Origin: Bacteriovoracaceae bacterium | GTDB lineage: Bacteria > Bdellovibrionota > Bacteriovoracia > Bacteriovoracales > Bacteriovoracaceae | Length of the DNA: 52,253 nt | Assembly: GCA_021732585.1 (NCBI GenBank) | Contig: JAKFUR010000038.1 | Location: 1-52,253 of the forward strand | Direction of reading: 5' to 3' | In this document: positions 15,883-33,729 of the stretch, one piece after another | How the letters are laid out: every line of letters begins with the position of its first letter | Numbering within the stretch: the first letter of the stretch is position 1 | Made by a program: the position numbers and the translations under genes | Notes under the pieces: generated by a model | Seen by the model: the letters and a program-made list of their open reading frames with translations, nothing else | What the model was told of the DNA's origin: nothing | Database searches by the model: none

Positions 15883-16791
15883 ATGAGACCTTTTCACCAC
15901 TTAGACCCCATGGCCCTCAAGGCCTTCTATTTTGCTGCTGAGGCCTTGCACTTTACTCGCGCCGCCGAGCTGGCGGGTCTCACGCAATCGGGCGTCAGCC
16001 AGTATATCGCTCGCCTCGAAGCCGAGTTAGGCGTGGATCTGTTTTTGCGCACGGGCCGACGTGTGAGCCTGACGGCCGCTGGCGTGGAGCTTAAGGCGTT
16101 TGCCGAGACCTATCTCGATCAAGTGGAGCGCTTACTGGAAACCATGGGAGGCGAGGGGCAAGAACTGCAAGGTGTGGTTCGCTACGCTATGCCCGCCTCA
16201 TGCCTTATGACTCCGCACTTTTCTCAACTCTTAGATGCCCGCCAAAAATTTCCAGGTGTGAATCTGCAGGTGCATATTTGTCATTCGGAAGAAGTGGTGG
16301 AGCTGTTATTGAATGGTGAAATTGATTTTGGTTTTGTCACGCGTGCTAGTCAGGCCAAAGATGTGGAGCATTTGGAGTTCGCTCGGGAAGAGTATGTGCT
16401 GGTAGGCGCAGGCCCGGGCGGTGAAGAGCGAGTGAAGGGCAGTGAGTTACTGGAACAGCCTTTTGTCATCTACCCCGGTATGGATGCACTGTTTGATATT
16501 TGGCATAGTGAGACTTTTTCTCAGAAGGTTATTCCTGCCTTGCGGGATTTGAAATGTGCCGGTGCCATTAATGATCTCGCTGCGGCCATCACGATGGTGA
16601 CCCATGGTTTGGGTCTAGCGGTATTCCCACGTCACTGCGTACAAGGTTTGATTGATAAGAAGAAGCTCACAGTCTATCGCGGAAGTCGTTCAGTAGGAAG
16701 CTATCCAATTTTTCTGATTCGAATGAAAGAAGCACGCTCAACGGCAAGAGTTGAGCGCGTGATTGAAGCCTTTCAAAAAATGAAAGGCTAG
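15883..16791 (+). CDS. LysR-family transcriptional regulator
   Basis: N-terminal helix-turn-helix (FTRAAELAGLTQSGVSQYIARLEAELGVDLF) and a LysR substrate-binding domain of typical length. Confidence 0.9.
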   Translation: MRPFHHLDPMALKAFYFAAEALHFTRAAELAGLTQSGVSQYIARLEAELGVDLFLRTGRRVSLTAAGVELKAFAETYLDQVERLLETMGGEGQELQGVVRYAMPASCLMTPHFSQLLDARQKFPGVNLQVHICHSEEVVELLLNGEIDFGFVTRASQAKDVEHLEFAREEYVLVGAGPGGEERVKGSELLEQPFVIYPGMDALFDIWHSETFSQKVIPALRDLKCAGAINDLAAAITMVTHGLGLAVFPRHCVQGLIDKKKLTVYRGSRSVGSYPIFLIRMKEARSTARVERVIEAFQKMKG

Positions 16792-17681
16792 CGTGGCAGA
16801 TGATTGAAGGTTTTCAGGAGGAAATCTTGCACACCTTGCAGACTGATTTTGAGATCATCTGCCGAACCGATAAAAGGATTGAACTCTACGAGGTCAATCG
16901 AACGTAAACGGCCTGTTTGCGCCAGCTCCTGACCCAAGCTCAGCATGTCCTGAGCATCGAGTCCACGAGAGACCAGGGTCCCTGTAGAAGGCATGGTCTC
17001 CGGGTCACAGGCATCTACATCAAAACTCAAATGCAGCGGAGAGGTTCCCTTAGGATCAATCTTTTTCAATGCGGCCTTGAGAAGATTCGCCATACCGTGT
17101 TCATGGATTTCATCTGTCGAATGGTAAGTGATATTCAGTTCGCGAATCAGGCGCTGTTCTTCAGGGTCAAGGGAGCGAGGCCCCAACAGTATCAATTTCT
17201 CAGGTCGTAGATGATTCTTCACCCAGCTAAAAGATTTATGTTGTCCTGCTTGGTTAAGTAAAAACGCCAGCGGCATCCCGTGGAAGTTTCCGGTCGGGGA
17301 TGCTGACGGAGGATTCATATCTCCGTGCGCATCGACCCACACCACAATCGTTTCGGGATTTTTGCTGAGCAGGCCATGAATGCTACCTAAGCTCAATCCA
17401 TGATCTCCGCCGACTACGAGTAACAGATCATTTGTAAGATCAAGCTTCTGAATAGTGCTGCTGATAGTTTCGCAACCAAAGGCCACTGTTTGCTCAAACC
17501 GAATGGAGGTGTCTTTTTCACTCATAAGCGTGAACGACATATCGCCCAGGTCCTCTACACGAACAACTTTTTCTAACTCTTGGATGAGGCCGATGCCACG
17601 AAAGAAGAGACTTGCAGCTGCGACGCCTTTATTGCTTTGTCCGTAATGAAAGGGAACGCCCAGCCATTTAACTTTTTGCAT
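16788..17681 (-). CDS. Arginase-family ureohydrolase (arginase-like)
   Basis: Mn-binding motifs GGDHGLSLGS, WVDAHGDMN and SFDVDACDP. ATG at 17681 (17690 is a GTG). Overlaps the upstream acyltransferase gene by 14 nt. Confidence 0.75.
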   Translation of the reverse strand: MQKVKWLGVPFHYGQSNKGVAAASLFFRGIGLIQELEKVVRVEDLGDMSFTLMSEKDTSIRFEQTVAFGCETISSTIQKLDLTNDLLLVVGGDHGLSLGSIHGLLSKNPETIVVWVDAHGDMNPPSASPTGNFHGMPLAFLLNQAGQHKSFSWVKNHLRPEKLILLGPRSLDPEEQRLIRELNITYHSTDEIHEHGMANLLKAALKKIDPKGTSPLHLSFDVDACDPETMPSTGTLVSRGLDAQDMLSLGQELAQTGRLRSIDLVEFNPFIGSADDLKISLQGVQDFLLKTFNHLPR

Positions 17682-18444
17682 AGGCCCCACTTATGAGGTC
17701 ATGGGACATGCGAGCGAGTCCTACACGATCGTGTTCTGGTGCCGGATGAATCGCGGGGATCTCAGTCACGTGAGCGACAACATTTTTTTGCTGGCAAAGT
17801 TTGAAAAGGTGATCGGGAAAAGTCATATCGCCGTACCAGCAGACAAGGTCTGCATTGGAGGGTGAGAATTTATCATCGTTGATCGAGACATACTTCAAGC
17901 ATAGCGGATAAAGCGGTACTTGGCAGTCGATGACTGTCTGAAAAAAGGGCGTTTTAAAGGGTAGAACACTTGAGCCATTTGAGCTGGTACCCTCTGGAAA
18001 CAAGAGGATACTGAATCCTTCCGAGAGGCGCTGCCTCATACTGCCCATTTCACGATTGATCGTCTGTGGGTCACGCTTGCGTAAACGACGCTCTACGAAG
18101 AAACAACCTGCGAGATCACATAGCTTTCCAAGGAGAAATGTTTCGCGAATTTCTACCGATGTAATGAAGAGTGATGGATAGTGACGGAACAGTACAAGTG
18201 CATCGAGGTACGATACGTGATTGCAAACGATGAATGATTTTGAAAGGTCAGTCTTTCCGTTCGGAAACTCAACTTTTACATTGAGAATTTTAAGCGCCCA
18301 GCCAGCGGTGCGAGCGATGCTGCGAAGAAAATAGCGCAGGCGTTTTTGCTCATCACGAATAATGAAATTGATCAGCGTGTGGTGAACCAGGTGGGTCATG
18401 ATGATCGCAAAGACACCTGCGAACTTCAAAACCGCGCGGATCAC
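17668..18444 (-). CDS. olsA: PlsC-type lysolipid O-acyltransferase (OlsA-like)
   Basis: HX4D motif CNHVSYLDA and a FPEGTSS block. A GTGA overlap joins it to the upstream OlsB-like gene, which is the classical olsB-olsA order. Confidence 0.6.
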   Translation of the reverse strand: MIRAVLKFAGVFAIIMTHLVHHTLINFIIRDEQKRLRYFLRSIARTAGWALKILNVKVEFPNGKTDLSKSFIVCNHVSYLDALVLFRHYPSLFITSVEIRETFLLGKLCDLAGCFFVERRLRKRDPQTINREMGSMRQRLSEGFSILLFPEGTSSNGSSVLPFKTPFFQTVIDCQVPLYPLCLKYVSINDDKFSPSNADLVCWYGDMTFPDHLFKLCQQKNVVAHVTEIPAIHPAPEHDRVGLARMSHDLISGAYAKS

Positions 18445-19319
18445 TTGCTCTGTCCATTGTCAAACCGGCGATCAAAGGCCGGATTCATGGCATTGAAATC
18501 TATTACTGTGAAGATATCGATGCAGTCCATCTCCGCATCATAGGCAAAGTCTTTGCCAACTTTCGCTCCCGCGAGGATGTACATATTCAAAAGTGAGTTG
18601 AGATGTTTTTTGTCGGTGGTGACCTCATTGGGATCAAAGCTCATGTCGACGTTGAGATCAGGAAAATGCTCAAGCGCAAAATCAGGCTGGGCTTTCACAT
18701 GATACTCTTCGAGAAATGCCTTGTTAGCATGGGTGGATTTCATCAAGCTGGGCATACTGCCAAAATCTTTGCGTCCTACGCTCGAGCAACCGAACATGTA
18801 CTTCGTTTGAGTAAGTGCAGCGTACTCACACAGTCCACGCCACAGCAAACGAACCACGATGCCTGAGCGGTGGTCTTTATGAACACAGGCACGACCCAGT
18901 TCAAGCTTGTTGCCGGGGATCTTTAGGAATTCATCGAGGTTAAATTCACCCTCAGTATAATAGCGCTCACCGCTCTTCATGCGTTGAGATGAAGTGAGAC
19001 GGTAACAGGCGATGATCTTGCCCGTTCTTTTCTCTTTGACGATGAGATGGTCACACGTGAAGTCGTTGCCATCGATGTCGTACGGCATCAGATACTTAGG
19101 CGGCTTGAAAGTGGCGAACTCATTGAAAAACACTTCAAAGCGCAAACGCAGGACCTGGTCGAGTTCATCCACGTGCTCGATGGTTTTGACTTCGTAGGTT
19201 TTGTTATCAAAGTGCAGCTTCACGGAAGCCGGACGGAAACGTCCGCCCTTCAGCTTCATGTAATGAGGCGATCGGACGACAAAATATTTAAGGGCCTGGG
19301 TCCAGTTGAGCGTTTCCAT
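18441..19319 (-). CDS. olsB: GNAT-like (hemolysin-like) N-acyl amino acid synthase (OlsB-like)
   Basis: Sequence pattern of the OlsB/Acetyltransf_5 family as I recall it (RLRFEVFFNEF...DHLIV...ACYRL...YYTEGEF...ELGRACVHKDHR). ATG at 19319 is preferred because 19391 is a TTG inside the upstream gene. Confidence 0.6.
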   Translation of the reverse strand: METLNWTQALKYFVVRSPHYMKLKGGRFRPASVKLHFDNKTYEVKTIEHVDELDQVLRLRFEVFFNEFATFKPPKYLMPYDIDGNDFTCDHLIVKEKRTGKIIACYRLTSSQRMKSGERYYTEGEFNLDEFLKIPGNKLELGRACVHKDHRSGIVVRLLWRGLCEYAALTQTKYMFGCSSVGRKDFGSMPSLMKSTHANKAFLEEYHVKAQPDFALEHFPDLNVDMSFDPNEVTTDKKHLNSLLNMYILAGAKVGKDFAYDAEMDCIDIFTVIDFNAMNPAFDRRFDNGQSK

Positions 19320-19330
19320 GAGGTCCAATC

Positions 19331-20164
19331 TTACTTCAATAAAAGGCGCAAAGATTCGATTGAATCGAGGATTGAAGTAGGTGATTTCCAAGGGATAAAA
19401 TGATTCATACCTTGAAGTATGTGGGCCCCTTTAATCAGTCCAGGTGAAAGTGTTTTTTGTAAGAAAGACACGTTTCCAACTGGAACCAGTGGGTCCTTAT
19501 CCCCGTGAATAATCATGACCGGTACTGTGATGAGACTCATTTTTGTGCGTAGTGTCTCTAAATGAGGTTTGAGAGCGTAAATTTCCTCGTTGCAGACGCG
19601 CAGGTCATTGGGCAGCAAAACACGGAAGGGCCACCAGGTGCCGACATGCTGGTACCACTTAATATCTTCGAGCTCTGGGTCTACCGAGCTTGCGACAAAG
19701 ACGAGTCCTGCGACTTTGCTGGGATGGTTCACTGCCATTTGTGCGATGACGGGACCACCGAAAGAATGGCCCACGAGAATCGCCGGCAATCCACTGGTGT
19801 TGAACTGCAAGGCTTCCACCACGTCATCGGCCTGTTGACTCACACTCAATTCAGCCTCGCCCTTTCCTGAACCGCCAAAACCAGGGCGGTCGATGGCGAT
19901 GAGATGGAATTCTTCGATGAGTTTTGGATTTTGTAAAAACTGTGCCCAGGCTTCCCATGATCCGGGCGAGCCGTGCACGAAAAGTAGCGGACGTTTTTGT
20001 GGGTTCCCGTTCCAGGCAAGTCGCATGGTACGTGCTTTGGTTTTGTACGTGATGAAGTGTGGAGGGCGAAGCGCCTCAAATTTCGCGATGTCGGTCTTGA
20101 TGGACTTCATAGGATTCTGCCAGGCGCACGAAGTGAGAAGGACGAGGGCCAAGAGGCGAGGCAT
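19331..20164 (-). CDS. Alpha/beta-hydrolase lipoprotein
   Basis: Lipobox LLTSC, nucleophile elbow GHSFGG, HGSPGS oxyanion region and C-terminal His (GMNHF). Confidence 0.75.
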   Translation of the reverse strand: MPRLLALVLLTSCAWQNPMKSIKTDIAKFEALRPPHFITYKTKARTMRLAWNGNPQKRPLLFVHGSPGSWEAWAQFLQNPKLIEEFHLIAIDRPGFGGSGKGEAELSVSQQADDVVEALQFNTSGLPAILVGHSFGGPVIAQMAVNHPSKVAGLVFVASSVDPELEDIKWYQHVGTWWPFRVLLPNDLRVCNEEIYALKPHLETLRTKMSLITVPVMIIHGDKDPLVPVGNVSFLQKTLSPGLIKGAHILQGMNHFIPWKSPTSILDSIESLRLLLK

Positions 20165-20835
20165 CAGTGAAAGCTCAGGGAAGTCTTCTGACTCCCGAGC
20201 CGCCCTTCAGCGTTGAGAAATTTAATCGGTGGAGTGAAGTCGCGGATCTCGTGGAGCGTCTTATCTTTTTTAAAGACGAAGATGATCTCTCCCGCCACCA
20301 TACGTACGAAGAAGTTCTCCGGCTTAAGTGTCCAGGTGACGAACTCGGCGTCCTCGGAGGTTCGGTGGAAGATGAATGAAAATGTTTCCATGCGGTCCGG
20401 CGCCAAGAGCTGGAACTGAAACGTTTTGAGTTCTTCTTTCTTCTTCCATTCCTGGGCGAGACCTGCGGCGATGATTGGCGGTACGAGGACGCGCGACTTC
20501 GAGGGAACTCGTAGCGTCTCTTTGTCGTCGTTGAGCTTGAGCTTCCACTTATCGCCCTGTCGAGTCATCGTGAAGCGCTGATTATTTTGGTGCTGGGTCC
20601 ATATATAGCTTTCGATCTGACCATCCTCGGCTAGAAGCACAGTCTCTTCTGAGAGTAAAACGCCATTCTCATCGCGAAACGTAGTGACATGTTTCATGGT
20701 TGTGTCGAGCGGGTTGAAAGCGTTTTCCATCGTAAAAAGTGAGACTCCAAGGGAGTTGAGATGAGAAGATTTTCCGATCAGCGTGGTCTGCGCCTGGGCA
20801 GCGTTAAGAAGAAAAAAAAACAAGAGAGTTTTCAT
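20164..20835 (-). CDS. Secreted hypothetical protein
   Basis: Signal peptide MKTLLFFFLLNAAQA. ATGA overlap with the upstream UbiA gene and a 1-nt overlap with the downstream hydrolase. No family recognised. Confidence 0.55.
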   Translation of the reverse strand: MKTLLFFFLLNAAQAQTTLIGKSSHLNSLGVSLFTMENAFNPLDTTMKHVTTFRDENGVLLSEETVLLAEDGQIESYIWTQHQNNQRFTMTRQGDKWKLKLNDDKETLRVPSKSRVLVPPIIAAGLAQEWKKKEELKTFQFQLLAPDRMETFSFIFHRTSEDAEFVTWTLKPENFFVRMVAGEIIFVFKKDKTLHEIRDFTPPIKFLNAEGRLGSQKTSLSFH

Positions 20836-21704
20836 GAGAATCTCCCTACGAGAAACATGCTGATAAATCCGACGCTCGATGTGAGCGTGAGAGTGTTCAG
20901 GCAGGAGGCGGCATTCTTATAGTTAGCTTCTGAGGGCGTTTTCCAAGAGGCGTGTGCCCAGCGCAAAAGTCTGATTCCGGCGGGAAGCTGAAGTAAAATG
21001 AACGCGAGCCAGCGAAGATCCACAGACAAGAGCAAAAGAGCACCAAGCGCGACAGAGAGACAACTAATGCTGAAAATAAAAGTTCCTCGGATACCAAAGA
21101 GTCGGCTGAGCGTAAGATCACCACGCTGGCGATCTTCGTCATGCTGATAGATTTGTGTGAGCGGATAGGCCGCCACCACCATAAAAAAGGAAACGACTAA
21201 TCCGAGGTTATCAAGAAACAGCGATGTTCCGTTGGCCGTCGTCTGGTTGACCAACCAGTAAATCACTGGCCCTTGGAATGTTGCTACGACGAGGAGGCTT
21301 ATCCATGGCATGGCCTTAAGTCTCACAGCGGGGTGACTGTAGAGTTTGCTGGCGATGCCATAGGCGATCAGAGCGATGGTAGGGATGGGACCAAAACAGA
21401 TGGCAGTCAAGGCAAGACCCAAGGTCTCTAGGCCTACTGCGATGGTGAGAAGTTGGGAGTCCACCATCGGAGGCTTTTCGAGCCCTCCGATACTTCCTTT
21501 GTCACGGTCATAGTAGCTGTTGAAACCGTGACTAGCTGGAAAGATGGCCACTGCGAGGATGAGAAATAATGCCAAGGCCGACACGAGGTTAGCTGAAGGA
21601 TTCTGTGCCAGCGCAAAAAAGAAGACTGGCGTCAGCGAGAACGAATGGAGAAATCGCAGATGCTTAATCGTACTACTGGTCGGCAGCCAATCCTGTGTAT
21701 CCAC
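20832..21704 (-). CDS. UbiA-family prenyltransferase (polytopic membrane protein)
   Basis: About 8 hydrophobic helices with two Asp-rich motifs (GFNSYYDRDKG and YQHDEDRQRGD) in the expected loops. GTG start. Confidence 0.6.
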   Translation of the reverse strand: MDTQDWLPTSSTIKHLRFLHSFSLTPVFFFALAQNPSANLVSALALFLILAVAIFPASHGFNSYYDRDKGSIGGLEKPPMVDSQLLTIAVGLETLGLALTAICFGPIPTIALIAYGIASKLYSHPAVRLKAMPWISLLVVATFQGPVIYWLVNQTTANGTSLFLDNLGLVVSFFMVVAAYPLTQIYQHDEDRQRGDLTLSRLFGIRGTFIFSISCLSVALGALLLLSVDLRWLAFILLQLPAGIRLLRWAHASWKTPSEANYKNAASCLNTLTLTSSVGFISMFLVGRFS

Positions 21705-21709
21705 CGAAA

Positions 21710-22402
21710 TCAGAAATCTCTCGTCACGCCAAGACTTGGAAGTAAGCTCTTGCGACGGAAGCGGTCATTGTTCTTCCTCAGCTTTTGAGTCGTGGTGTAT
21801 TCCGTGAAAGCAAAATTCGCGGCGAGCTTGAGACCCCAGCCGTTTCCTAGATTTCTGATCGCATAGAACTCTGAATTAAGAGATCCGCGATCATTTTCAC
21901 TGATGAGGAGAAGATTGAAGGGCGTTGGACGAGCTGAGACTTCATCAGGAAAAGATGCGTCATCTTTCTTGGGATTGTATTTCGCTTTCTGTTTTTTACC
22001 AAAGCTGCCACCAATGACATCGATATTTGTACCAAAGCCCCAGTTGGCGCTCCACTGATAGAGGAACTGCACCATGGCGTTGAGCGATGTCACTTGTGTC
22101 GTCGCCAATCTCAGATCATCAATATTTTCTTTCTTGTCCTCGAGAAAAATAACTTGCGGGCCTTCTTGCCCTGTTGTTAACAGCGCCGGCGCTGTTTTGT
22201 ATCCTTGGTCTGAGCCCCAAGTTGAAGTTCCACGAATACCGAATCCGATCCAGAGCTTCGTATTGGATACACGCCAGAAGCGAGTCGCATCGAGCGCCAG
22301 CTGTTGTTCGTTATTGCCAGCCGAGGAGCTCAGCGCGAGCCGATCGAATGCTAAAGCAGAGAACGGGAGAGTGAGTAAGAATAGGAAACTAAGTTGCTTC
22401 AT
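21710..22402 (-). CDS. Outer-membrane beta-barrel protein (hypothetical)
   Basis: Signal peptide, alternating amphipathic strands and a C-terminal aromatic residue (...GVTRDF) typical of outer-membrane proteins. Confidence 0.5.
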   Translation of the reverse strand: MKQLSFLFLLTLPFSALAFDRLALSSSAGNNEQQLALDATRFWRVSNTKLWIGFGIRGTSTWGSDQGYKTAPALLTTGQEGPQVIFLEDKKENIDDLRLATTQVTSLNAMVQFLYQWSANWGFGTNIDVIGGSFGKKQKAKYNPKKDDASFPDEVSARPTPFNLLLISENDRGSLNSEFYAIRNLGNGWGLKLAANFAFTEYTTTQKLRKNNDRFRRKSLLPSLGVTRDF

Positions 22403-23007
22403 TTGACGGCTCCTTCGATGTGTAGGCTGACTGGCAATTTGTTGCTTGCATCAATGAAAAGAAACTTCTTCACCGTGATATCAAAGTCGGAACGTTTCAT
22501 CATCCAGTCACCCTTCAGTGTGAACTGAGTTTTGTCGTCGTTCAGTGTGACGGTCACAGGAACGTTTTGCTCGCGGGCCACACCATGGATCGTCCAGAGA
22601 ATCCGCGCCGACTTATCACCTAAGGTGAACGGAGTGACGAGATGTGCGGTGATCGTAGTATGCACAGGCGAATTTTTTCCGGTGGCCGGCAAAACATCAT
22701 TTTGGCAGACGTGCTCTTTTGGAAAGTCCGACTGCTTATAGTCAAGAGTCAGGGAGGATTGCAGATGGCAGATAAAATTTTTGTCGTCGTTCTTGAGGTC
22801 TGTGACCGCAAGAACGAGGTCGGCTTCCAGGATCTGAGTTCGATCGTTGTTCCAGAAGACTTGACCGGTGAGCTTGCTGGCTTCGAGCTTGTGAGTACCG
22901 AAGGTGTAGGGCACCTTCAGCTCAATTTGAGATTTTGTAAATATGGAGTCGTTGGCATTCGCTCCCAACAAGAACACAAAACTGAGAACTGTGTAGATTA
23001 GTTTCAT
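22399..23007 (-). CDS. YceI-like (polyisoprenoid/lipid-binding) periplasmic protein, tentative
   Basis: ATG at 23007 gives a signal peptide. The size and pattern loosely match YceI (KVPYTFGTHKLEASKLTGQVFW ... KRSDFDITVKK ... VSLHIEG). Confidence 0.4.
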   Translation of the reverse strand: MKLIYTVLSFVFLLGANANDSIFTKSQIELKVPYTFGTHKLEASKLTGQVFWNNDRTQILEADLVLAVTDLKNDDKNFICHLQSSLTLDYKQSDFPKEHVCQNDVLPATGKNSPVHTTITAHLVTPFTLGDKSARILWTIHGVAREQNVPVTVTLNDDKTQFTLKGDWMMKRSDFDITVKKFLFIDASNKLPVSLHIEGAVK

Positions 23008-23020
23008 GGAGGACGTCACC

Positions 23021-24415
23021 TTAGTGATTGAGTTCTTCTGCCGCTTTCAGCAAATCTGCCAAAAATGGTTTCAGGATTTTTTCGTTTTGTTCAGGATGGG
23101 CTGTGATGAGACGAATGAACGAGTCATCTTTTCTCGTCGCCATGTTCACCATCGCCTGGCCTTTCTTCATGAGATGTTCGCGCAGCGAACGATGCCACTG
23201 AGAACTCGGCATCTGCTGAGGGCGTTTCACGCGAAAGCATACATTGAGGGATGTCGGTTCGCAAACAAGTTCAAGACCCGCCGTTTGTTTAATCAGTGTC
23301 GCGGCGGTTTGAGCGTTGGTGAAAAGTGTGTCGACGTAGTTCTCTAGGCCGTTATCCCCAAGGGCACGCCAGGCAAACCAGACTTTAATTCCATCGGCTT
23401 TGCGACCACATTGCAACGATGACGGTCCTAGATCCCAAGAGCCGGCATCTGACGCATGGAAAATATAATCAGCACCGCCGCCACCGTGAGATGAACGAAG
23501 GGCGTTGGCATGAGGAGTGAGAAAGAATGAACTCACCAATCCAGTGCCGAGCATTTTATGAGTGTCCCATCCCAGTGAGTCGGCGTTCTCAATACCTTTC
23601 ATGAGATGGCGATGCTTGCGCGAAACGAGCACGCTGCCACCCCAAGCACCATCTACGTGCAGCCAGATTTTTTCTTCCCGTGCGATAAGACTTAACTCAT
23701 CGATTGGATCGAATTCACCTAAGACAGTTGTTCCGGCCGTGGCGGCGATGAAGAAGGGACGCTCACCTTGAGAGCGGCTTTCTTGGATCGCGATCTTCAA
23801 AGCCTCCGGTGACATACGGCCTTGTTCATCAGCAGGTACAGCGCGAATATTATCCGTGCCCAGTCCCATGATGTTGGCAGCTTTACCGAAAGAGTAGTGG
23901 GCTTCTTCGCTGACGAAGGCGACGAGACGGGCCCCGTGCATTCCGGTTTTTTTATATTCAGGAAAAAGTTTATTGCGGGCCATGAGGAGACCCACGAGAT
24001 TGGCGTTGGAGCCACCGGTGACCATGATGCCATCACCATTTTTCCAACCCGCAAAACCGCATAAGTGTTGGACTAACTCACGTTCCATTAGGGTCGCCGC
24101 AGGCGAAGCCTCAAACGTGGCCATGGTGGTATTGGTCACAGCGGCGAGCATTTCACCGGCGAGTGCCCACGGCTGGAGGCCCGAGAAAAGTTGATTCATG
24201 AAATGGGGATCAAGCGTCGCCACGGCATGCTTCAAGTAATTATGGAGGTCTTGCTGCAGTTGATGATCGGTTTGAGGGCCGGCCGAAAGGGTGAGGTCTA
24301 GCTTTTCTTTGAGCTCAATCGGCGCGAGAGCTGGACCGACACCACGTTCACGGAGCTGACGAAGGTACTGTTCAATCGTCTTTTGTGTAAGTTGGAGAAC
24401 TTCAGAGTGATTCAT
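23021..24415 (-). CDS. Group II PLP-dependent amino-acid decarboxylase (cysteine sulfinate / glutamate decarboxylase-like)
   Basis: Motifs GGSNANL, HVDGAWGG and the PLP-lysine context SLGWDTHKMLG. Overlaps the cysteine dioxygenase gene by 14 nt. Confidence 0.8.
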   Translation of the reverse strand: MNHSEVLQLTQKTIEQYLRQLRERGVGPALAPIELKEKLDLTLSAGPQTDHQLQQDLHNYLKHAVATLDPHFMNQLFSGLQPWALAGEMLAAVTNTTMATFEASPAATLMERELVQHLCGFAGWKNGDGIMVTGGSNANLVGLLMARNKLFPEYKKTGMHGARLVAFVSEEAHYSFGKAANIMGLGTDNIRAVPADEQGRMSPEALKIAIQESRSQGERPFFIAATAGTTVLGEFDPIDELSLIAREEKIWLHVDGAWGGSVLVSRKHRHLMKGIENADSLGWDTHKMLGTGLVSSFFLTPHANALRSSHGGGGADYIFHASDAGSWDLGPSSLQCGRKADGIKVWFAWRALGDNGLENYVDTLFTNAQTAATLIKQTAGLELVCEPTSLNVCFRVKRPQQMPSSQWHRSLREHLMKKGQAMVNMATRKDDSFIRLITAHPEQNEKILKPFLADLLKAAEELNH

Positions 24416-24908
24416 TGGCCACTTTATCTACCCATTCATTGAGGGTTTCATCAAACACCTGCATGCTATGGAGTGGGCGGGCATAGAGATGTAAACTTAC
24501 GGCCCCGGTGTTCGATGAGAGCTTGTGAAAACAAGCCAAATCGTTAATGTGGGAGACACTGCCATCTGTGAGTTTGGCTTCATGGACAGGAATCGCTTCA
24601 TAAGGACGATAACGAGTTTCAATGAGCTCACCACTCAAAACATGCATGTAGCATTGGCTGCCGCCATGGCCATGAATGGGAGAGGAGCTTCCTATCCCCC
24701 AGGTCATAAGCACAAGCTCAAATTGGTCATTGTGAAACATGACCTGACGTGTGCGCTGGCCCGGTTGAGGAGCTGGCATCTGTGGACGCGCCGATATTTC
24801 TTTTAGCAAAAAGCGGGGATCGTTTTGAACCGAAGTTTGTTGGACCAGTTGGTGAACGAGAAAATTCACCTGATCGATAAAGCCATTTTTTTCTTCAGCT
24901 ATGTTCAT
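24402..24908 (-). CDS. Cysteine dioxygenase type I (cupin)
   Basis: Cupin metal-binding motif SSPIHGHGGSQCYMHVLSGEL and a later His (CFHKL). The size (168 aa) is typical of bacterial cysteine dioxygenases. Confidence 0.7.
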   Translation of the reverse strand: MNIAEEKNGFIDQVNFLVHQLVQQTSVQNDPRFLLKEISARPQMPAPQPGQRTRQVMFHNDQFELVLMTWGIGSSSPIHGHGGSQCYMHVLSGELIETRYRPYEAIPVHEAKLTDGSVSHINDLACFHKLSSNTGAVSLHLYARPLHSMQVFDETLNEWVDKVANESL

Positions 24909-24920
24909 AAGTTTTATTTT

Positions 24921-24939
24921 ATGTTAATATATAAACATT
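24921..24939. promoter_or_regulatory. Palindromic operator candidate, copy 1 (ATGTTAATATATAAACATT)
   Basis: Lies 13 nt upstream of the cysteine dioxygenase start and 21 nt upstream of the YHS gene start. It matches 27437-27455 at 18 of 19 positions. Imperfect dyad ATGTTAATA|TATAAACAT. Confidence 0.6.
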
Positions 24940-24959
24940 AAAAAACAAGGAGTCTCTTC

Positions 24960-25412
24960 ATGAACGTTTTAAAGTCCCTTTTTGTGACATTGAGCTTTTT
25001 AATTGGTTCTAGTCTATTGCAAGCCGCGGACATTCGTCCTTATAATCCTCAGGGGGGATACGGTGCAGCAGGGTATGATGTAATAAGTTATCAGACTGAG
25101 CAAAAAGCTCGTCCCGGTAAGAAAGAGTATAAAGCCGCTCACGATGGCGTGACCTATCTCTTCTCAAGCAATGAGAATCTCGCGATTTTCCAAGAGAATC
25201 CAGCTAAATACGTTCCAGCTTATGGCGGCTGGTGCGCTTACGCGATTGCCGATGCAGAAGAGGTCGAGATTGACCCAGAAACATTTAAAGTTATCGATGG
25301 CCGGGTTTATCTTTTCTATAATGGCATCTGGGGCAATACTCTTAAGAAGTGGAATAAAGATGAAGCTTCTTTAAAGAGTAAAGCTGACAAAGTATGGAAC
25401 TCGCGCCAATAG
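24960..25412 (+). CDS. Secreted YHS-domain protein
   Basis: Signal peptide, pattern GYDVISYQ...HDGVTYLFSSNENLAIFQENPAKYVPAYGGWCAYAIA, and RBS AAGGAG. Confidence 0.6.
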   Translation: MNVLKSLFVTLSFLIGSSLLQAADIRPYNPQGGYGAAGYDVISYQTEQKARPGKKEYKAAHDGVTYLFSSNENLAIFQENPAKYVPAYGGWCAYAIADAEEVEIDPETFKVIDGRVYLFYNGIWGNTLKKWNKDEASLKSKADKVWNSRQ

Positions 25413-25960
25413 ACTTTCACACTCTTTTTTCCGGGCTGCTCCAGCAGCCCGTGCTTTTATTTCTGAGCATAATCCTAGCGACATTTGTTTTAGAAGATCC
25501 TGCGACCATCGCGGTCGGGGTGCTCTTGGCCAAGGGTCTTGTTTCATGGCCTTTTGCCCTCATAGCGTTGGGTGCAGGTATCTTTCTTGGAGATGTGGGT
25601 CTCTATGGCCTTGGGCGGGGAGTTCGCGCGGGATTCTTTCGTCAGCGCTCGTGGAGCTATCGGCCTAACAAGTTTGATCTTATTCTAGCGCGCTTTGTCC
25701 CCGGCTTACGCACACTCACTTTTGGTGCCGCTGGTTTTTTTCATTTTCCGCTAGGGTTTTTCTTGTTGATCACTTTTCCCTCAACCATCGTCTGGACAGG
25801 CATTTTGCTAGCAGGCACGGATCATCTGGTGCGTGAGTTTAGTTTTGTGCCCTGGTGGGGATGGGCCTTAGTGGGTCTAAGCATAATGGGGCTCGGTCAT
25901 TGGGTGAAAGCGAAATTTACAGCAAGTCGCGGTGGCGATAGGCCTTCCACACCCGCATGA
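25394..25960 (+). CDS. DedA/SNARE-associated (VTT domain) membrane protein
   Basis: Four or more transmembrane segments and the motif FVLEDPATIAVGVL...GDVGLYGLGRG. Overlaps the YHS gene by 19 nt. Confidence 0.55.
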   Translation: MELAPIDFHTLFSGLLQQPVLLFLSIILATFVLEDPATIAVGVLLAKGLVSWPFALIALGAGIFLGDVGLYGLGRGVRAGFFRQRSWSYRPNKFDLILARFVPGLRTLTFGAAGFFHFPLGFFLLITFPSTIVWTGILLAGTDHLVREFSFVPWWGWALVGLSIMGLGHWVKAKFTASRGGDRPSTPA

Positions 25961-26921
25961 ATTCCCAAAAACCACCGGCATCTTTGCCTCGGCGAATATT
26001 TTGACCGTTAACTACGGCGAGCATCCACCAGTGATAAACGAGATCACGCCAGGCGCGCCAGAGTTTTTCCTGGGGATCATAGATGTGGCCAGGCTCAGAG
26101 AAAGCTCCGTTGAGTTCCATGATCTTCCAGCCTTCACCACGAGCAAAGGCCTCCAAGCTCGGGGCTTTCAAATCAAAGCGCCCAAAATAAAATCCGGGGA
26201 TCTCAGCGACAATGTTTTCAACAGTTCTCTGAACCGCGGCATTGCGCAGATGTTGTCCACCAATAAAAGTCGTGCCGCGTTTATGATTACCAATAGGCTC
26301 GAGCAATACCACTTCATCTTTAGCAGGAACACGAGTGCCGTCTAAGCCGAGAGATTGCAGACGCTGCCATTGAAAGCGAGCACGCGGCTGTGTCGCCACT
26401 AACTCAGCGATAGTGTGCCTGCCATCTCCTGTGACTTGTAGAAATCCTTTCGTCACAATTGAGGTGACGAGAACTTGATTGGTGTCGGGAAGTCGCACCA
26501 CCATCACACCCGCCTCGAAGGAGGAGGGGAGAAATTCTTGCACGATGAAAGGGCGCTTGAGTTTGAGGGCGTAGTTTTTGAGTTCACCTAAATCGCGAAC
26601 AATCGCCACATTGTCACCGCGTTCGCCCACATCAGGTTTGGCCACCACGGGCCAAGAGAATCGTAGTGGCTCACACTCTTCAACTTGAGAGATGAGTTTC
26701 CACTGGGGGAGATAGTCTTTTGGCAGCTGAGCGAGGATGCCACTTTTAGATTCTTCTAGGCATCCACCGAGAGGGATAAAAGGATTGGAGGCGGTAAAGA
26801 AAACCAGTGAACGGCCTTTGATCGCCATTATCGGCCAGGCAAACCAGACAGGCATGTATAAGGCCCAGAAGGGCCAGTACTCGAAGCGCCACAATCTGTG
26901 CCAGCGATCACTGAGCGTCAT
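25917..26921 (-). CDS. ATP-grasp family ligase with an N-terminal hydrophobic anchor
   Basis: N-terminus YWPFWALYMPVWFAWPIMAI. ATP-grasp blocks VVAKPDVGERGDNV, FIVQEFLP and the Mg-site-like KIMELNGAFSEPG. Its start overlaps the marR stop by 14 nt. Confidence 0.55.
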   Translation of the reverse strand: MTLSDRWHRLWRFEYWPFWALYMPVWFAWPIMAIKGRSLVFFTASNPFIPLGGCLEESKSGILAQLPKDYLPQWKLISQVEECEPLRFSWPVVAKPDVGERGDNVAIVRDLGELKNYALKLKRPFIVQEFLPSSFEAGVMVVRLPDTNQVLVTSIVTKGFLQVTGDGRHTIAELVATQPRARFQWQRLQSLGLDGTRVPAKDEVVLLEPIGNHKRGTTFIGGQHLRNAAVQRTVENIVAEIPGFYFGRFDLKAPSLEAFARGEGWKIMELNGAFSEPGHIYDPQEKLWRAWRDLVYHWWMLAVVNGQNIRRGKDAGGFWEFMRVWKAYRHRDLL

Positions 26922-27390
26922 AGAATTTATTGAGATGGGCGCGCATTTGCAGCCATTCTCCGCGTGAGTTCGGCGACATTTTAAGAGGCAGCGCTTTGAT
27001 ATTGGCGAAATGAAGATCCATTAACTCTTCGGCGTAACGAGTGCCCGTCGGCGAAAGGTAATACTTAGGTCTTCCTTTGGTTGAGATAAGCGGGCACGGA
27101 TAGATCAGACCATCGACTTCAAGTCGGCGAACAAAAGTGCTCATATTGCCACGTGACACTCTAAGACGATCTGCGAGTTGAGTGGCACTCAGAGGAGCAT
27201 CAAAAAAAAGTGCGAAGAGCAGACGAAAACGGGGATATGTACAGTTCTTCTCCGCAAGTTTTTTTTCTAGCTGACCGTAGACCAGCTCAACGGTCAGCAG
27301 CATCGAACGCCACAAAGCGATCTTGGACTCCTTAAGAGCTTTCTTGAGATGAATTCTTTTAGGAGTTAAAGGAAGATTAGATTCTGACAT
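26908..27390 (-). CDS. MarR-family transcriptional regulator
   Basis: Winged helix-turn-helix LSATQLADRLRVSRGNMSTFVRRLEVDGLI, about 160 aa. Confidence 0.8.
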   Translation of the reverse strand: MSESNLPLTPKRIHLKKALKESKIALWRSMLLTVELVYGQLEKKLAEKNCTYPRFRLLFALFFDAPLSATQLADRLRVSRGNMSTFVRRLEVDGLIYPCPLISTKGRPKYYLSPTGTRYAEELMDLHFANIKALPLKMSPNSRGEWLQMRAHLNKFYDAQ

Positions 27391-27436
27391 GGGTTAATTA
27401 TAAGTTTCCCTTGCCGTGCTCGCAAGTGTTTGCGTA

Positions 27437-27455
27437 ATGTTAATGTATAAACATT
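27437..27455. promoter_or_regulatory. Palindromic operator candidate, copy 2 (ATGTTAATGTATAAACATT)
   Basis: Lies in the marR/doxX divergent region, 47 nt upstream of marR and 11 nt upstream of doxX. Matches 24921-24939 at 18 of 19 positions. Confidence 0.6.
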
Positions 27456-27465
27456 CGAGGTTTTT

Positions 27466-27837
27466 ATGAAAAAGCTGCTGATTCTTTGCCAATGGGTGCC
27501 TGCGATTATTTTGCTGCAGACACTCTATTTCAAATTTACGGCTGCGCCGGAGTCCGTTTGGATTTTTTCTACTCTTGGCGCTGAGCCCTTTGGGCGCTGG
27601 GGGAGTGGACTCATTGAACTCATTGCAGCTGTTTTGATTCTCATGCCTACCACCAAAGTGTGGGGGGCTCTCCTGGTGATGGGCACTATGGCCGGTGCGA
27701 TTCTTTCGCACGTTTTCATTTTGGGAATTGAAGTACAAGGTGATGGTGGAACTTTATTTGCCCTTGCCTGTGTAGCTTTTGTAAGTGCAGCGATCGTTGG
27801 CCATTTTGATCGCGAACGCCTGCTTAAGTTGTTTTAA
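27466..27837 (+). CDS. DoxX-family small membrane protein
   Basis: 123 aa with four hydrophobic helices and a DoxX-like pattern (GSGLIELIAAVLIL...GAILSHVF). Confidence 0.55.
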   Translation: MKKLLILCQWVPAIILLQTLYFKFTAAPESVWIFSTLGAEPFGRWGSGLIELIAAVLILMPTTKVWGALLVMGTMAGAILSHVFILGIEVQGDGGTLFALACVAFVSAAIVGHFDRERLLKLF

Positions 27838-29219: not shown

Positions 29220-30641
29220 ATGAGAGACACGATTTTGCTGCACCTTAATGGTCAGCACCATGAATTAAATGGGGCAGAAGCCTTCATGACCCTGTCCGAT
29301 TTCCTACGCTATCAGCGGGGACTTACAGGAACGAAGGTGGTCTGCGCTGAAGGGGACTGCGGTGCTTGCACTGTACTCGTATCGCATGGAGATGAGCGCT
29401 ATCAATCCATCAATTCCTGTATCGCTTTCATGTGGCAGCTGGATCGCTCTCATGTGATCACGGTAGAGGGCCTCAAAAAAGACGGCGTCGTTCATCCGGT
29501 GCAAGAAAGCATGGTCTCCACTCATGGGGCGCAATGTGGTTATTGCACGCCAGGTTTTATTTGCGCGATGGCAGGAATGACGGAAGACGCGCGCATTGAA
29601 GGTTTCCCTCTCGAGGAAAAGCGCGTACGCAATTATCTCACGGGCAACCTGTGTCGCTGTACGGGCTACCAGGCCATCATCGAGGCCGGCTGCAAAACTG
29701 ATCTGAAAACTGTGCCTGATCTTAAGAAGCTTTATCCTGTGAAGACTGACAAGAATTCAGGCAGTGTGCATCTTACGCATCAAGGGCTAGAGATTTTTCT
29801 ACCTTCGAGCGTGAAAGAAGCCGTGGAGATTTTTAATCGTGAGAAAGTAAAGATTGTCTCCGGCGCCACAGACTTAGGTGTTTTATACAACAAGGGCAAG
29901 TGGGCGCCTGAGAAGATGATGAGTCTTGCGGCGATTAGTGAACTCAAAAAGATCACCGACGAGAAGGATACTTTGGTCGTCGGTGCGCGCGCGAGTCTCA
30001 CACAACTTGAAGCGGCCACCGTAAAAATCTTTCCTGAACTTTCTCGTATGCTTCATCTCTTTGCCTCACCCCAAATCAAAAACACTGGCACGCTCATTGG
30101 CAATATGATGAACGCGTCTCCAATTGCTGACACCATCCCGTTCTTGAAAGTCGCGGAAGCTGAAGTGGTACTGGTTGGGCCACAAGGCCAGCGCATCGTG
30201 AATGTGAATGAGTTCTTTCAGGCAGGTTATAAAAAAATGGATCTGCGCGCGGGCGAGCTTGTGACCCATGTGCGCATCCCTAAAACGCAGGATGCTTTCC
30301 GACTCTATAAAGTTTCCAAGCGCAAAGACATGGATATCTCCGCAGTCACCGCCGCCATTCGCTATCGTTTGGATAAAGACGTGTTTGCCAGCATCAGCAT
30401 CGCTTTTGGTGGAGTGGGTGCTAGTGTTTTACGGTTTCCTGATCTAGAAAAAATCGCGCGTGGGCAAAAAGTCACACCGGCGCTTATGCGGCAGTTAGGT
30501 GCGGAACTTGATAAGCAGATCACTCCGGTGAGCGATGTGCGTGGTAGCGATAAGTACCGCCGTCTCTTGTGCACGAACTTGTTGATGAAATTTGGTGATG
30601 AACTCACAAGAGCCTGGGCCCCTCGTGGGGTGAGTCTATGA
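29220..30641 (+). CDS. xdhA: Xanthine dehydrogenase small subunit (2Fe-2S + FAD-binding)
   Basis: Two [2Fe-2S] motifs (CAEGDCGACTV; GAQCGYCTPGF...CRCTGY) followed by an FAD-binding domain (GATDLGV). ATGA overlap with xdhB. Confidence 0.9.
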   Translation: MRDTILLHLNGQHHELNGAEAFMTLSDFLRYQRGLTGTKVVCAEGDCGACTVLVSHGDERYQSINSCIAFMWQLDRSHVITVEGLKKDGVVHPVQESMVSTHGAQCGYCTPGFICAMAGMTEDARIEGFPLEEKRVRNYLTGNLCRCTGYQAIIEAGCKTDLKTVPDLKKLYPVKTDKNSGSVHLTHQGLEIFLPSSVKEAVEIFNREKVKIVSGATDLGVLYNKGKWAPEKMMSLAAISELKKITDEKDTLVVGARASLTQLEAATVKIFPELSRMLHLFASPQIKNTGTLIGNMMNASPIADTIPFLKVAEAEVVLVGPQGQRIVNVNEFFQAGYKKMDLRAGELVTHVRIPKTQDAFRLYKVSKRKDMDISAVTAAIRYRLDKDVFASISIAFGGVGASVLRFPDLEKIARGQKVTPALMRQLGAELDKQITPVSDVRGSDKYRRLLCTNLLMKFGDELTRAWAPRGVSL

Positions 30642-32950: not shown

Positions 32951-33711
32951 TGGAACAACGTTTGGATGAGTTTTGCGCTCAGTTCTTGAAGTATCAGTCT
33001 GAACAAACCTCCATGGTGATTGTGACCATGGTGGATTACAAAGGCAGCGCACCTCAAGATCCGGGCGCTCGCATGATCGTCGGCGAGAAGGGATTACTGT
33101 TCGGCACCGTCGGCGGCGGGAAGATTGAAAAAAAATGCCTAGATGTGGCTCTCGAGCAGTTTACCTCTAAGAAAAGAGTGACTCCTTTCAGTCAGACTTG
33201 GAATTTGCAAAGAGACATCGGTATGTCCTGCGGTGGTGAAGTCACCATGTTCTTTGAAGTACATCATCCGCGCGAAGCATGGAATGTGGCTGTCTTCGGC
33301 GCAGGCCATGTGAGCCAGGAACTCACGCGCTTGCTAGTGAAGCTCGACTGTCAGCTCACCGTGATTGACTCTCGTCAGGAGTGGCTGGATAAACTTCCTG
33401 CGACCAGTCCGCGCTTTAAGACTGTACGCACAGATGATCTCGCGGGTGTTTTAAAAACTCTGCCGCCCAAAACCTTCGTGGCGTTGATGACCATGGGGCA
33501 CTCACATGATCTGCCAATTCTTAAAGTCGCTTTGAATGAGCATGAGTTTCCCTTCGTCGGAGTGATTGGCTCTAAGGCGAAACGCAATCGCCTGGAAGCA
33601 GAGTTAGGAAAAACCAATTTTCATTGCCCACTCGGTGAAGATTTTGGCTCCAACGCTCCCGTGGAAATTGCTTTGAGTATGGTGGCGCAGCTGCTTAAAG
33701 AGCGTGATCGT

Positions 33712-33729
<18 letters not shown>
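32950..33729 (+). CDS. xdhC: XdhC-family xanthine dehydrogenase accessory/maturation protein
   Basis: XdhC_CoxI N-terminal block (TMVDYKGSAPQDPGARM...GTVGGG) and a Rossmann-like block (VAVFGAGHVS). Its start overlaps the xdhB stop. Confidence 0.8.

Follow-up and report, generated by a model that had tools for sequence, protein, structure and literature searches.

As a chemical structure, a taurine-modified ornithine lipid has been on record since 1976, and extracts were shown to synthesize it in an ATP-dependent manner. A review from March 2026 describes the transfer of taurine to ornithine lipid in Gluconobacter cerinus as ATP-dependent, with enzyme and gene unknown, and does not place Bdellovibrionota among the orders that contain OlsB (PMC12971839). 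Our literature search found no gene assigned to this lipid, cerilipin, and no description of an operon of olsBA with arginase or of a cluster of Ols genes with those for cysteine dioxygenase (CDO) as well as cysteine sulfinate decarboxylase (CSAD); no paper linked CDO/CSAD with ornithine-lipid genes, save a roseobacter preprint that mentions both terms. Here we analysed a 52,253-nucleotide (nt) stretch with a G+C content of about 50% (the window), which comprises positions 1 to 52,253 of contig JAKFUR010000038.1 from the Bacteriovoracaceae bacterium assembly GCA_021732585.1. A first-pass annotation had read ten consecutive minus-strand genes at 16788-24908 as one operon that may build a modified aminolipid, plausibly a taurine-amidated ornithine lipid. 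This interpretation was partly supported, and it was bettered by boundaries at about 15883-27837, enclosing some 15 genes, and by the inclusion of an ATP-grasp ligase, a DedA protein and YHS and DoxX proteins. We tentatively favor the reading that the locus directs synthesis of an acyloxyacyl aminolipid of the ornithine type, with hypotaurine extending its head group. The evidence is comparative genomics throughout and the lipid is a predicted product. We describe the locus as a putative one for aminolipid biosynthesis, for which we predict a new modification of the head group and which holds a candidate for an orphan enzyme activity.

Profile searches against Pfam and NCBIfam gave family calls for eight of the ten genes. 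The first gene of the run encodes a CDO of 168 amino acids (aa) (24402-24908, minus strand; Pfam CDO_I, 62 bits), whose best solved relatives were mammalian CDO1 enzymes, nearer than the CDO of Bacillus. In an alignment of eight members of the CDO clade, the equivalents of His86, His88, His140, His155 and Tyr157 were kept, as was that of Ser153 save for one Ser-to-Thr change. The equivalent of Cys93 was kept across the clade and the Cys93-Tyr157 pair was present; in mammalian CDO, Cys93 forms a Cys-Tyr cross-link, and bacterial CDOs usually have Gly there. The rat CDO sequence used was consistent with the PDB alignment printed. An invariant Arg was found 9 residues before a conserved strand (10 residues in rat), and MAFFT put it 4 columns off Arg60, the residue that binds the cysteine carboxylate and separates CDO from 3-mercaptopropionate dioxygenase; the alignment is ambiguous at this point, and an Arg60 equivalent is probably present.

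The second gene encodes a pyridoxal phosphate (PLP) group II decarboxylase of 464 aa, a probable CSAD (23021-24415, minus strand; Pyridoxal_deC, 286 bits). In the PDB ranking, mammalian CSAD came first (6zek, 330 bits; 2jis, 328 bits), followed by GADL1 at 301 bits and GAD at no more than 283 bits, and GAD65/67, bacterial DABA-type and aromatic decarboxylases all ranked behind CSAD. Together with the conserved CDO active site, this ranking upheld the earlier proposal that the pair is a hypotaurine source, and there are good grounds to predict that the two enzymes convert cysteine to cysteine sulfinate and then to hypotaurine, a pathway that would be eukaryote-like. Homologous loci and contigs fetched for comparison with the window are labelled L001 to L172 (L009 is from GCA_019752535.1 and L171 from GCA_038322885.1). 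CSAD adjoins CDO in the window and in L007-L011, L090-L092 and L170-L172, with OlsB in between in L009. A scan of GTDB genomes with the decarboxylase alignment yielded 80 loci, only two of which had an adjacent CDO (L010 and L011), and both also carried the ATP-grasp gene described below. Another 77 were paralogs (38-51% identical) whose neighbors included none of CDO, Ols and ATP-grasp, and the last (L061) had only a CDO-like open reading frame (ORF) of 31% identity about 3 kb from the decarboxylase; these loci are uninformative on the cluster. This pattern indicates that the association with CDO and ATP-grasp is specific to one clade and is no property of the decarboxylase family.

The distal end of the run carries the lipid genes. 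An OlsB-family N-acyltransferase of 292 aa (18441-19319, minus strand) matched Acetyltransf_5 (PF13444) at 88.5 bits against a cut-off of 22.4, and its best NCBIfam matches were two OlsB equivalogs, at 106.9 and 104.5 bits (cut-offs 320 and 350); the assignment of the GNAT-like protein to the OlsB family was thus borne out, with equivalog scores below cut-off. The search returned 538 OlsB homologs, and those named were from Bacteriovoracia or Bdellovibrionota. Taken with the named relatives of the decarboxylase and of the upstream proteins, they were metagenome-assembled genomes of Bacteriovoracia, Bacteriovoracaceae or Bdellovibrionota, which places the window in a lineage of predatory bacteria. 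The next gene encodes an OlsA-type (PlsC-family) O-acyltransferase of 258 aa (17668-18444, minus strand; Acyltransferase PF01553, 73 bits), which carries the motifs NHVSYLD (HX4D) and FPEGT and whose best NCBIfam matches were OlsA equivalogs at 88 and 86 bits, with a cut-off of 300. The last gene of the run encodes an arginase of 297 aa (16788-17681, minus strand; Pfam Arginase PF00491, 177 bits). It narrowly missed the rocF model TIGR01229 (220.5 bits, cut-off 227.6) and scored only 70.6 bits as agmatinase; all 43 PDB matches were arginases, and the motifs GGDH, DAHGD, GNFHG, SFDVDACDP and EFNP, which provide the Mn ligands and substrate loop, aligned. We infer on good grounds that this enzyme would convert arginine to ornithine.

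The olsB-olsA-arginase trio was also found alone in unrelated neighborhoods of other Bacteriovoracia, namely in L002, L003/L004 and L005 (metagenome-assembled genomes; L002:10001-12502, L003:10001-12571 and L005:10001-12589), and L006 had OlsB-OlsA only. The recurrence of the trio sustained the suggestion that arginase is the ornithine supplier, and it implies that lipid synthesis has its own dedicated supply of ornithine from arginine. OlsB is placed here as a family member, and ornithine is its presumed substrate only on account of the conserved downstream arginase. Should the hypotaurine-lipid reading fail, the trio would remain a neat case of a gene dedicated to precursor supply.

An amide between ornithine lipid and taurine or hypotaurine would be needed for the proposed lipid, and nothing encoded within 16788-24908 was able to form it. 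The gene set of the first-pass annotation had missed an ATP-grasp carboxylate-amine ligase of 334 aa encoded upstream of the ten-gene run (25917-26921, minus strand). This protein is the only plausible amide-forming candidate, and we propose it as the hypotaurine ligase. Enzymes of the ATP-grasp class join carboxylates to amines through an acyl phosphate, and the amine is the only nucleophile of hypotaurine; the ATP-dependent taurine transfer of Gluconobacter cerinus fits this chemistry. The window protein had no Pfam match at threshold, some of its homologs carry PF08443, and the NCBIfam matches were weak yet coherent (CPS-like, archaeal Ddl-like, cyanophycin synthetase and RimK). In an alignment of 34 homologs, the motifs KPDVGERG, QE, RFDLK (GRFDLK) and E-x-N (MELNG) were invariant or nearly so. 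An AlphaFold (AF2) model reached a pLDDT of 90.4, and Foldseek matched it to GshF, cyanophycin synthetase (CphA), Ddl and LysX/ArgX with a probability of 1.00, so that an ATP-grasp fold with nucleotide and Mg motifs can be predicted with confidence. The N-terminal segment of about 50 residues is conserved, hydrophobic and rich in Trp, Phe and Tyr, and may be an interfacial membrane anchor. A relationship with OlsH, the ATP-dependent N-acyl-ornithine synthase, was considered and rejected because OlsH is GH3-like and adenylate-forming.

The evidence that ties the sulfur genes to the Ols genes came from the arrangement of related loci. Twelve CDO-CSAD loci were fetched, and these represent 11 distinct loci, L008 and L090 being duplicates of one place (window, L007, L008/L090, L010, L009, L011, L091, L092, L170, L171 and L172). 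ATP-grasp, YHS (often fused with DoxX_2) and DedA genes lay beside CDO-CSAD in all 11, and about 20 further decarboxylase and ATP-grasp matches agreed exactly in the length of the longest contig in two protein searches. In L007, whose decarboxylase is 91% identical to that of the window, all ten genes were present together with a class III nucleotidyl cyclase gene between hydrolase and OlsB. L008, L090 and L010 (86-87% identical) had the order CDO-CSAD-hydrolase-OlsB-OlsA-arginase and lacked a four-gene cassette, and L009 (62% identical) had the interleaved order CDO-OlsB-CSAD-OlsA-cyclase and lacked arginase. In L171 (50% identical), cyclase and hydrolase genes on the opposite strand were followed by ATP-grasp-CDO-CSAD-DoxX::YHS, then by a DedA::OlsA fusion, MsrA, a gene for a protein of no assigned family and an ECF sigma gene, and then by OlsB with arginase directly after it. 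The L171 fusion (429 aa, L171:12144-13433) is in frame and was backed by BLAST and Pfam: residues 11-152 were 49% identical to the window DedA, and residues 161-409 were 38% identical to the window OlsA. The same in-frame DedA::OlsA arrangement was found in L091 (7307-8341), ahead of the contig end. The fusion is of the Rosetta-stone type and would tie DedA and the module physically to an aminolipid acyltransferase.

Module and Ols genes thus occurred together in at least four architectures as decarboxylase identity fell from 91% to 50%. We take these rearranged architectures, one of them interleaved and one with a fusion, as good evidence from genome comparison that hypotaurine module and Ols enzymes work on one and the same product, and the functional link first suggested between sulfur and Ols genes was strengthened by them. 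The ten genes as a unit fared otherwise. Conservation of their order had been named beforehand as a point on which the operon could fall, and only L007 has all ten, with the extra cyclase; L008, L090 and L010 are without four of them, and the order is rearranged in L009 and L171. The run is a composite of the Ols trio, CDO-CSAD, the cassette and a lipoprotein hydrolase, and it is these sub-blocks that are conserved.

On this basis, we propose the following pathway. Arginase would convert arginine to ornithine, OlsB would N-acylate ornithine with a 3-hydroxyacyl chain, and OlsA would O-acylate the product to give ornithine lipid. CDO would oxidize cysteine to cysteine sulfinate, and CSAD would decarboxylate this to free hypotaurine. 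Since a PLP decarboxylase can act only on a free alpha-amino acid, hypotaurine would have to be made free, before any conjugation; a route by way of N-acyl-cysteine, with oxidation and decarboxylation after N-acylation, was rejected for the same need of a free alpha-amino group. The membrane-associated ATP-grasp enzyme would then activate ornithine lipid at its free alpha-carboxylate, forming an acyl phosphate, and couple the amine of hypotaurine to it, or alternatively act on ornithine ahead of N-acylation, and the product would be a hypotaurine-amidated ornithine lipid. Oxidation of the sulfinate could yield a taurine form that is cerilipin-like, DedA is the likely flippase partner, and the hydrolase, the YHS/DoxX proteins and the strain-variable cassette may be accessory envelope components. 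The steps as far as free hypotaurine are well supported predictions from homology and gene context; amide formation, sulfinate oxidation and the flippase role are suggested by gene context only.

Several observations weigh against this reading. The literature search returned no report of an aminolipid in Bdellovibrionota, and the OlsB and OlsA scores lie far under the NCBIfam equivalog cut-offs, at about a third of them. Where mammalian CSAD has F/S/Y at three positions, reportedly a selectivity motif (Agnello and co-workers are said to have described it in 2013), the window decarboxylase has F/T/A; T-x-A was near-invariant in the bacterial decarboxylase family, including the paralogs without CDO. 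The N-terminus of the ATP-grasp protein reached a Kyte-Doolittle value of 1.16 (19-residue window), which is under the classical transmembrane score. The OlsB of L009, a locus without arginase, was the most divergent, at 39-42% identity. The DNA fetched around the module in L011, L092, L170 and L172, which reached up to 10 kb to either side, contained neither OlsB nor OlsA. Among the neighbors of Bacteroidota-like ATP-grasp genes, CDO, CSAD and Ols genes did not occur, save an OlsB-like gene in two loci, and the carboxylate substrate of the ATP-grasp enzyme need not be a lipid.

The last two observations suit the explanation that there are two products. The module would then make a hypotaurine conjugate outside the Ols pathway as a protectant against oxidative or envelope stress (amino-acyl-hypotaurine, gamma-glutamyl-hypotaurine or a different sulfinate associated with the membrane are examples), olsBA-arginase would make plain ornithine lipid, and the two would be co-located only through a shared envelope-stress regulon. 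Hypotaurine is a known radical scavenger, the L171 operon includes MsrA, genes for thioredoxin, pirin, AhpC, GST and OYE lie near and those for an ECF sigma factor and an anti-sigma-like protein are adjacent, and the LysE-type exporter found with Bacteroidota-like ATP-grasp genes points to a small soluble product. We regard two separate products as the main and a serious rival, less probable than the hypotaurine lipid. Against it, the interleaved CDO-OlsB-CSAD-OlsA order of L009 is hard to obtain from co-regulation alone, the DedA::OlsA fusion within the CDO-CSAD operon of L171 and L091 is likewise hard to explain, and all other proteins of the module are associated with membrane or envelope.

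L009 bears on a further alternative, in which OlsB acylates the amine of hypotaurine directly and OlsA adds the second chain to give an N-(acyloxyacyl)hypotaurine, in the manner of the roseobacter sulfur aminolipid or the taurolipids of Tetrahymena, with arginase and ATP-grasp serving other ends. Its minimal CDO-OlsB-CSAD-OlsA order, with no arginase and a strongly diverged OlsB, is what such a route would look like. OlsB homologs are known to have switched head-group substrate, to glutamine or lysine (PMC12971839), and there are sulfur aminolipids whose synthesis depends on an OlsA-like enzyme (SalA; PMC8319176). Direct acylation, however, would leave no role for the ATP-grasp ligase, the tightest partner of CDO-CSAD, and arginase stays coupled to OlsB/OlsA in the window clade and in L171. 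The window OlsB is also nearer to the OlsBs of arginase trios without CDO-CSAD (48-56% identity) than to that of L009 (42%), and the roseobacter sulfur lipid is reportedly made without an OlsB homolog (PMC11631085). We therefore consider direct N-acylation improbable.

The junctions of the ten ORFs, which form an unbroken series at 16788-24908, were recomputed with the start codons that the first-pass annotation implied, and all nine were exactly as claimed. Internal ATG codons were used instead of the longest ORF for YceI (23007), OlsB (19319) and arginase (17681). Independent gene calls in homologous contigs matched the YceI start (202 aa, L001) and the OlsB start (292 aa, L007 and L008), and gave arginases of 292 aa (L007) and 297 aa (L008), the latter fitting the start at 17681. 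From the CDO end, the junctions were a 14-nt overlap (CDO/decarboxylase), a 13-nt gap (decarboxylase/YceI), an ATGA overlap (YceI/putative barrel), a 5-nt gap (barrel/UbiA), an ATGA overlap (UbiA/secreted protein), a 1-nt overlap (secreted protein/hydrolase), an 11-nt gap (hydrolase/OlsB), a 4-nt GTGA overlap (OlsB/OlsA) and a 14-nt overlap (OlsA/arginase).

Packing of this kind could be accidental, with unrelated small operons (for hypotaurine, an isoprenoid/YceI cassette, a lipase and ornithine lipid) set head to tail and no common pathway. The genome is compact: 13 of 21 same-strand neighbor pairs outside the region also have gaps of 15 nt or less, and the tight junctions alone are therefore weak evidence. 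The presence or absence of the four-gene cassette among close relatives, and a contig on which an OlsB 92% identical to that of the window has other upstream genes, are also in keeping with chance assembly. The chance of nine tight junctions in series is about 0.62^9, or about 1%, and the ten-gene co-directional run was the longest in the window, the second longest having six genes. Given that module and Ols genes recur down to a CSAD identity of 50% in varied order and with a fusion, and that an adjacent CDO marked so few of the decarboxylase loci, each with ATP-grasp, accidental packing is the least probable of the explanations considered and, in our opinion, unlikely. A scan for promoters gave 10 sites compared to 9.9 in shuffled controls, and one for terminators gave 13 compared to 12.2, with no internal signal above the controls across the ten genes; at shuffle level, the scan is silent on operon structure. 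A terminator-like hairpin with a 10-bp stem, 6 GC pairs and a T-rich tail lies right after the last gene (16733-16759, minus strand), which suggests a terminator at 16759-16733, with the reservation that the total of such sites does not exceed that of the shuffles.

Between CSAD and the hydrolase lies the four-gene cassette. It begins with a YceI-like periplasmic protein of 202 aa (22399-23007, minus strand), with a marginal Pfam YceI score of 26.6 bits against a cut-off of 23.7, followed by a secreted, putative small outer-membrane barrel of 230 aa (21710-22402, minus strand) with a signal-peptide-like N-terminus and a C-terminal Phe. A UbiA-family prenyltransferase of 290 aa (20832-21704, minus strand; Pfam UbiA, 58 bits) has the Asp-rich motifs NSYYDRD and HDEDRQRGD, and the last member is a putatively secreted protein of 223 aa with a signal-peptide-like N-terminus (20164-20835, minus strand). 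The family labels given earlier agreed with the profile searches for the eight genes called; those of an outer-membrane beta-barrel and a secreted protein did not correspond to any family, as the 230-aa and 223-aa proteins had no match in Pfam or NCBIfam. A single-sequence structure model of the 223-aa protein was unusable (pLDDT 41.9), and a homolog was found only in L007; a protein (about 208 aa) that L092 and L170-L172 encode downstream of DedA was considered as another and proved not homologous.

L007 had the cassette; L008, L090 and L010 lacked it, and it is dispensable in these sibling strains, whose neighboring genes are about 87% identical. Homologs of the putative barrel (34-45% identity) lay near ATP-grasp in 12 of the 83 loci analysed for ATP-grasp neighbors, in L007 and Bacteroidota-like contigs; UbiA homologs did so in L093 and L111, and YceI was also among the ATP-grasp neighbors in Bacteroidota-like contigs. 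These homologs link the cassette to the system of ATP-grasp, DoxX and YHS, with which it probably belongs functionally, rather than to OlsBA.

Downstream of the cassette, the run encodes an alpha/beta-hydrolase of 277 aa with a lipoprotein-type signal (LLTSC) (19331-20164, minus strand; Abhydrolase_1, 86 bits), and homologs lay beside the CDO-CSAD module in L007, L008, L010, L011, L171 and L172. OlsI, the O-acyltransferase of the OlsHI pathway, is an alpha/beta-hydrolase (PMC12971839), and by this likeness a transacylase or remodelling role is conceivable. Other loci repeatedly had a class III adenylate/guanylate cyclase (about 450-490 aa) by the hydrolase or OlsA (L007:15096-16559, L009:11968-13329 and L171:5454-6914); it was 68% identical between L007 and L171 and was absent from the window.

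Outside the ten genes, a secreted YHS-domain protein (24960-25412, plus strand) is encoded divergently from CDO across a 51-nt spacer and scored 120.6 bits for YHS_seleno_dom (cut-off 70). It is followed by the DedA/VTT-domain membrane protein (25394-25960, plus strand; Pfam VTT_dom, 27 bits, under the cut-off). A MarR-family regulator (26908-27390, minus strand; Pfam MarR) overlaps the ATP-grasp gene by 14 nt and was conserved upstream of it in L007-L010; a promoter-like site at 27425-27397, by MarR, was not above chance. Divergent from MarR is the gene for a DoxX_2-like membrane protein (27466-27837, plus strand), with a Pfam DoxX_2 score of 24.6 bits, just under the cut-off. In four related loci, DoxX_2 and YHS form a single protein (L092:8222-9010, L170:11096-11902, L171:11368-12165 and L172:3713-4522), and the separate proteins of the window therefore probably work together. 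At the other end of the locus, a LysR-family regulator (15883-16791, plus strand; Pfam HTH_1 and LysR_substrate) is convergent with arginase, with a 4-nt overlap, and a LysR gene flanked the Ols trio in L002, L005, L007 and L008.

Just downstream of DedA, the multi-TM protein of some 208 aa, which has conserved cysteines, was paired with a convergent ECF sigma factor gene (L092:9802-10942, L170:12429-13584, L171:13987-15181 and L172:5049-6179), and the protein looks like an anti-sigma partner. This pair and MsrA within the L171 operon suggest that the module is under oxidative or envelope stress control. Within the window, a xanthine-dehydrogenase-type cluster (Fer2/FAD-binding subunit, molybdopterin subunit and XdhC) lies a few kb upstream at 29220-33729 and was syntenic in L007 and L008. 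ARAGORN called a 100-nt tRNA-Ile(aat) at 48936-49035 inside overlapping long ORFs, probably a false positive.

The ATP-grasp family had 865 matches, is mostly Bacteroidota-like and is much larger in those contigs. Neighbors in the 83 loci included DinB-like (45), LysE (36), DoxX_2 (28) and TANGO2/NRDE (25) proteins besides the barrel homologs mentioned above, as well as YHS and YceI; Crp was also part of the conserved neighborhood in L093-L169 (for example, L111:4037-14961). Upstream of this neighborhood, L111 has a set of type III PKS, methyltransferase, FAD oxidoreductase and UbiA genes. With a custom OlsB profile, an OlsB-like gene was found by only two Bacteroidota-like ATP-grasp loci (L119 and L168), and a general linkage of ATP-grasp with aminolipid synthases in these contigs was rejected, none being visible. 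A wider reading, which we hold to be speculative and somewhat unlikely, is that the ATP-grasp protein founds a family of membrane-associated ligases for aminolipid head groups, with a hypotaurine-amidated ornithine lipid, a sacrificially oxidizable sulfinate lipid of the envelope, as the product in Bacteriovoracia and other amines attached by the Bacteroidota homologs, for example the serine of serine-glycine lipids onto acidic lipids. If true, it would give the first genetic handle on cerilipin-type modification.

For the hypotaurine-extended ornithine lipid itself, the locus offers a concrete candidate set for the orphan enzyme, made up of OlsB, OlsA, arginase, CDO, CSAD, ATP-grasp and DedA and small enough for one expression construct. 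Its confirmation would add a sulfur-containing head group that is new among the membrane lipids of bacteria, and would establish the first aminolipid pathway in predatory Bdellovibrionota. It would also assign a function to an ATP-grasp family that has hundreds of members and is uncharacterised and, as the OlsA fusion suggests, a lipid-linked role for a DedA protein.

Compared to the OlsB/OlsA pathway of the Sinorhizobium meliloti type, the locus likewise has a gene for an Acetyltransf_5 enzyme that overlaps the next one, for a PlsC-type O-acyltransferase that carries HX4D and FPEGT, whereas the scores reach about a third of the equivalog cut-offs and the pair is translationally coupled to arginase and, in the window clade, to the hypotaurine genes. 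The CDO/CSAD taurine pathway of animals, which Agnello and co-workers reportedly found in some bacteria in 2013, shares the adjacent CDO and group II decarboxylase, and mammalian CDO1 and CSAD are the nearest of the solved relatives; unlike it, the window enzyme has F/T/A in place of F/S/Y, and the pair lies amid genes for membrane proteins and lipid synthesis. The roseobacter lipid SAL, with a cysteinolic-acid head group, is similarly a sulfur-containing aminolipid of the acyloxyacyl type that needs an OlsA-like enzyme, SalA (PMC8319176). SalA has HX5D where the window OlsA has HX4D, N-acylation takes place directly on the SAL head group and reportedly involves no OlsB homolog (PMC11631085), and the system is without a CDO, CSAD or ATP-grasp gene. 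With the ATP-grasp amide ligases (GshF/glutathione synthetase, cyanophycin synthetase, D-Ala-D-Ala ligase and RimK/LysX), the window protein shares the fold and the nucleotide and Mg motifs, but identity is 11-22% and an aromatic-rich hydrophobic segment replaces the usual N-domain. Cerilipin of Gluconobacter cerinus has no reference gene for homology; as there, an ornithine lipid would be joined to a C2 amino-sulfur compound by an ATP-requiring step, here predicted from the genes, and the direct product expected is a sulfinate, from hypotaurine, rather than a sulfonate.

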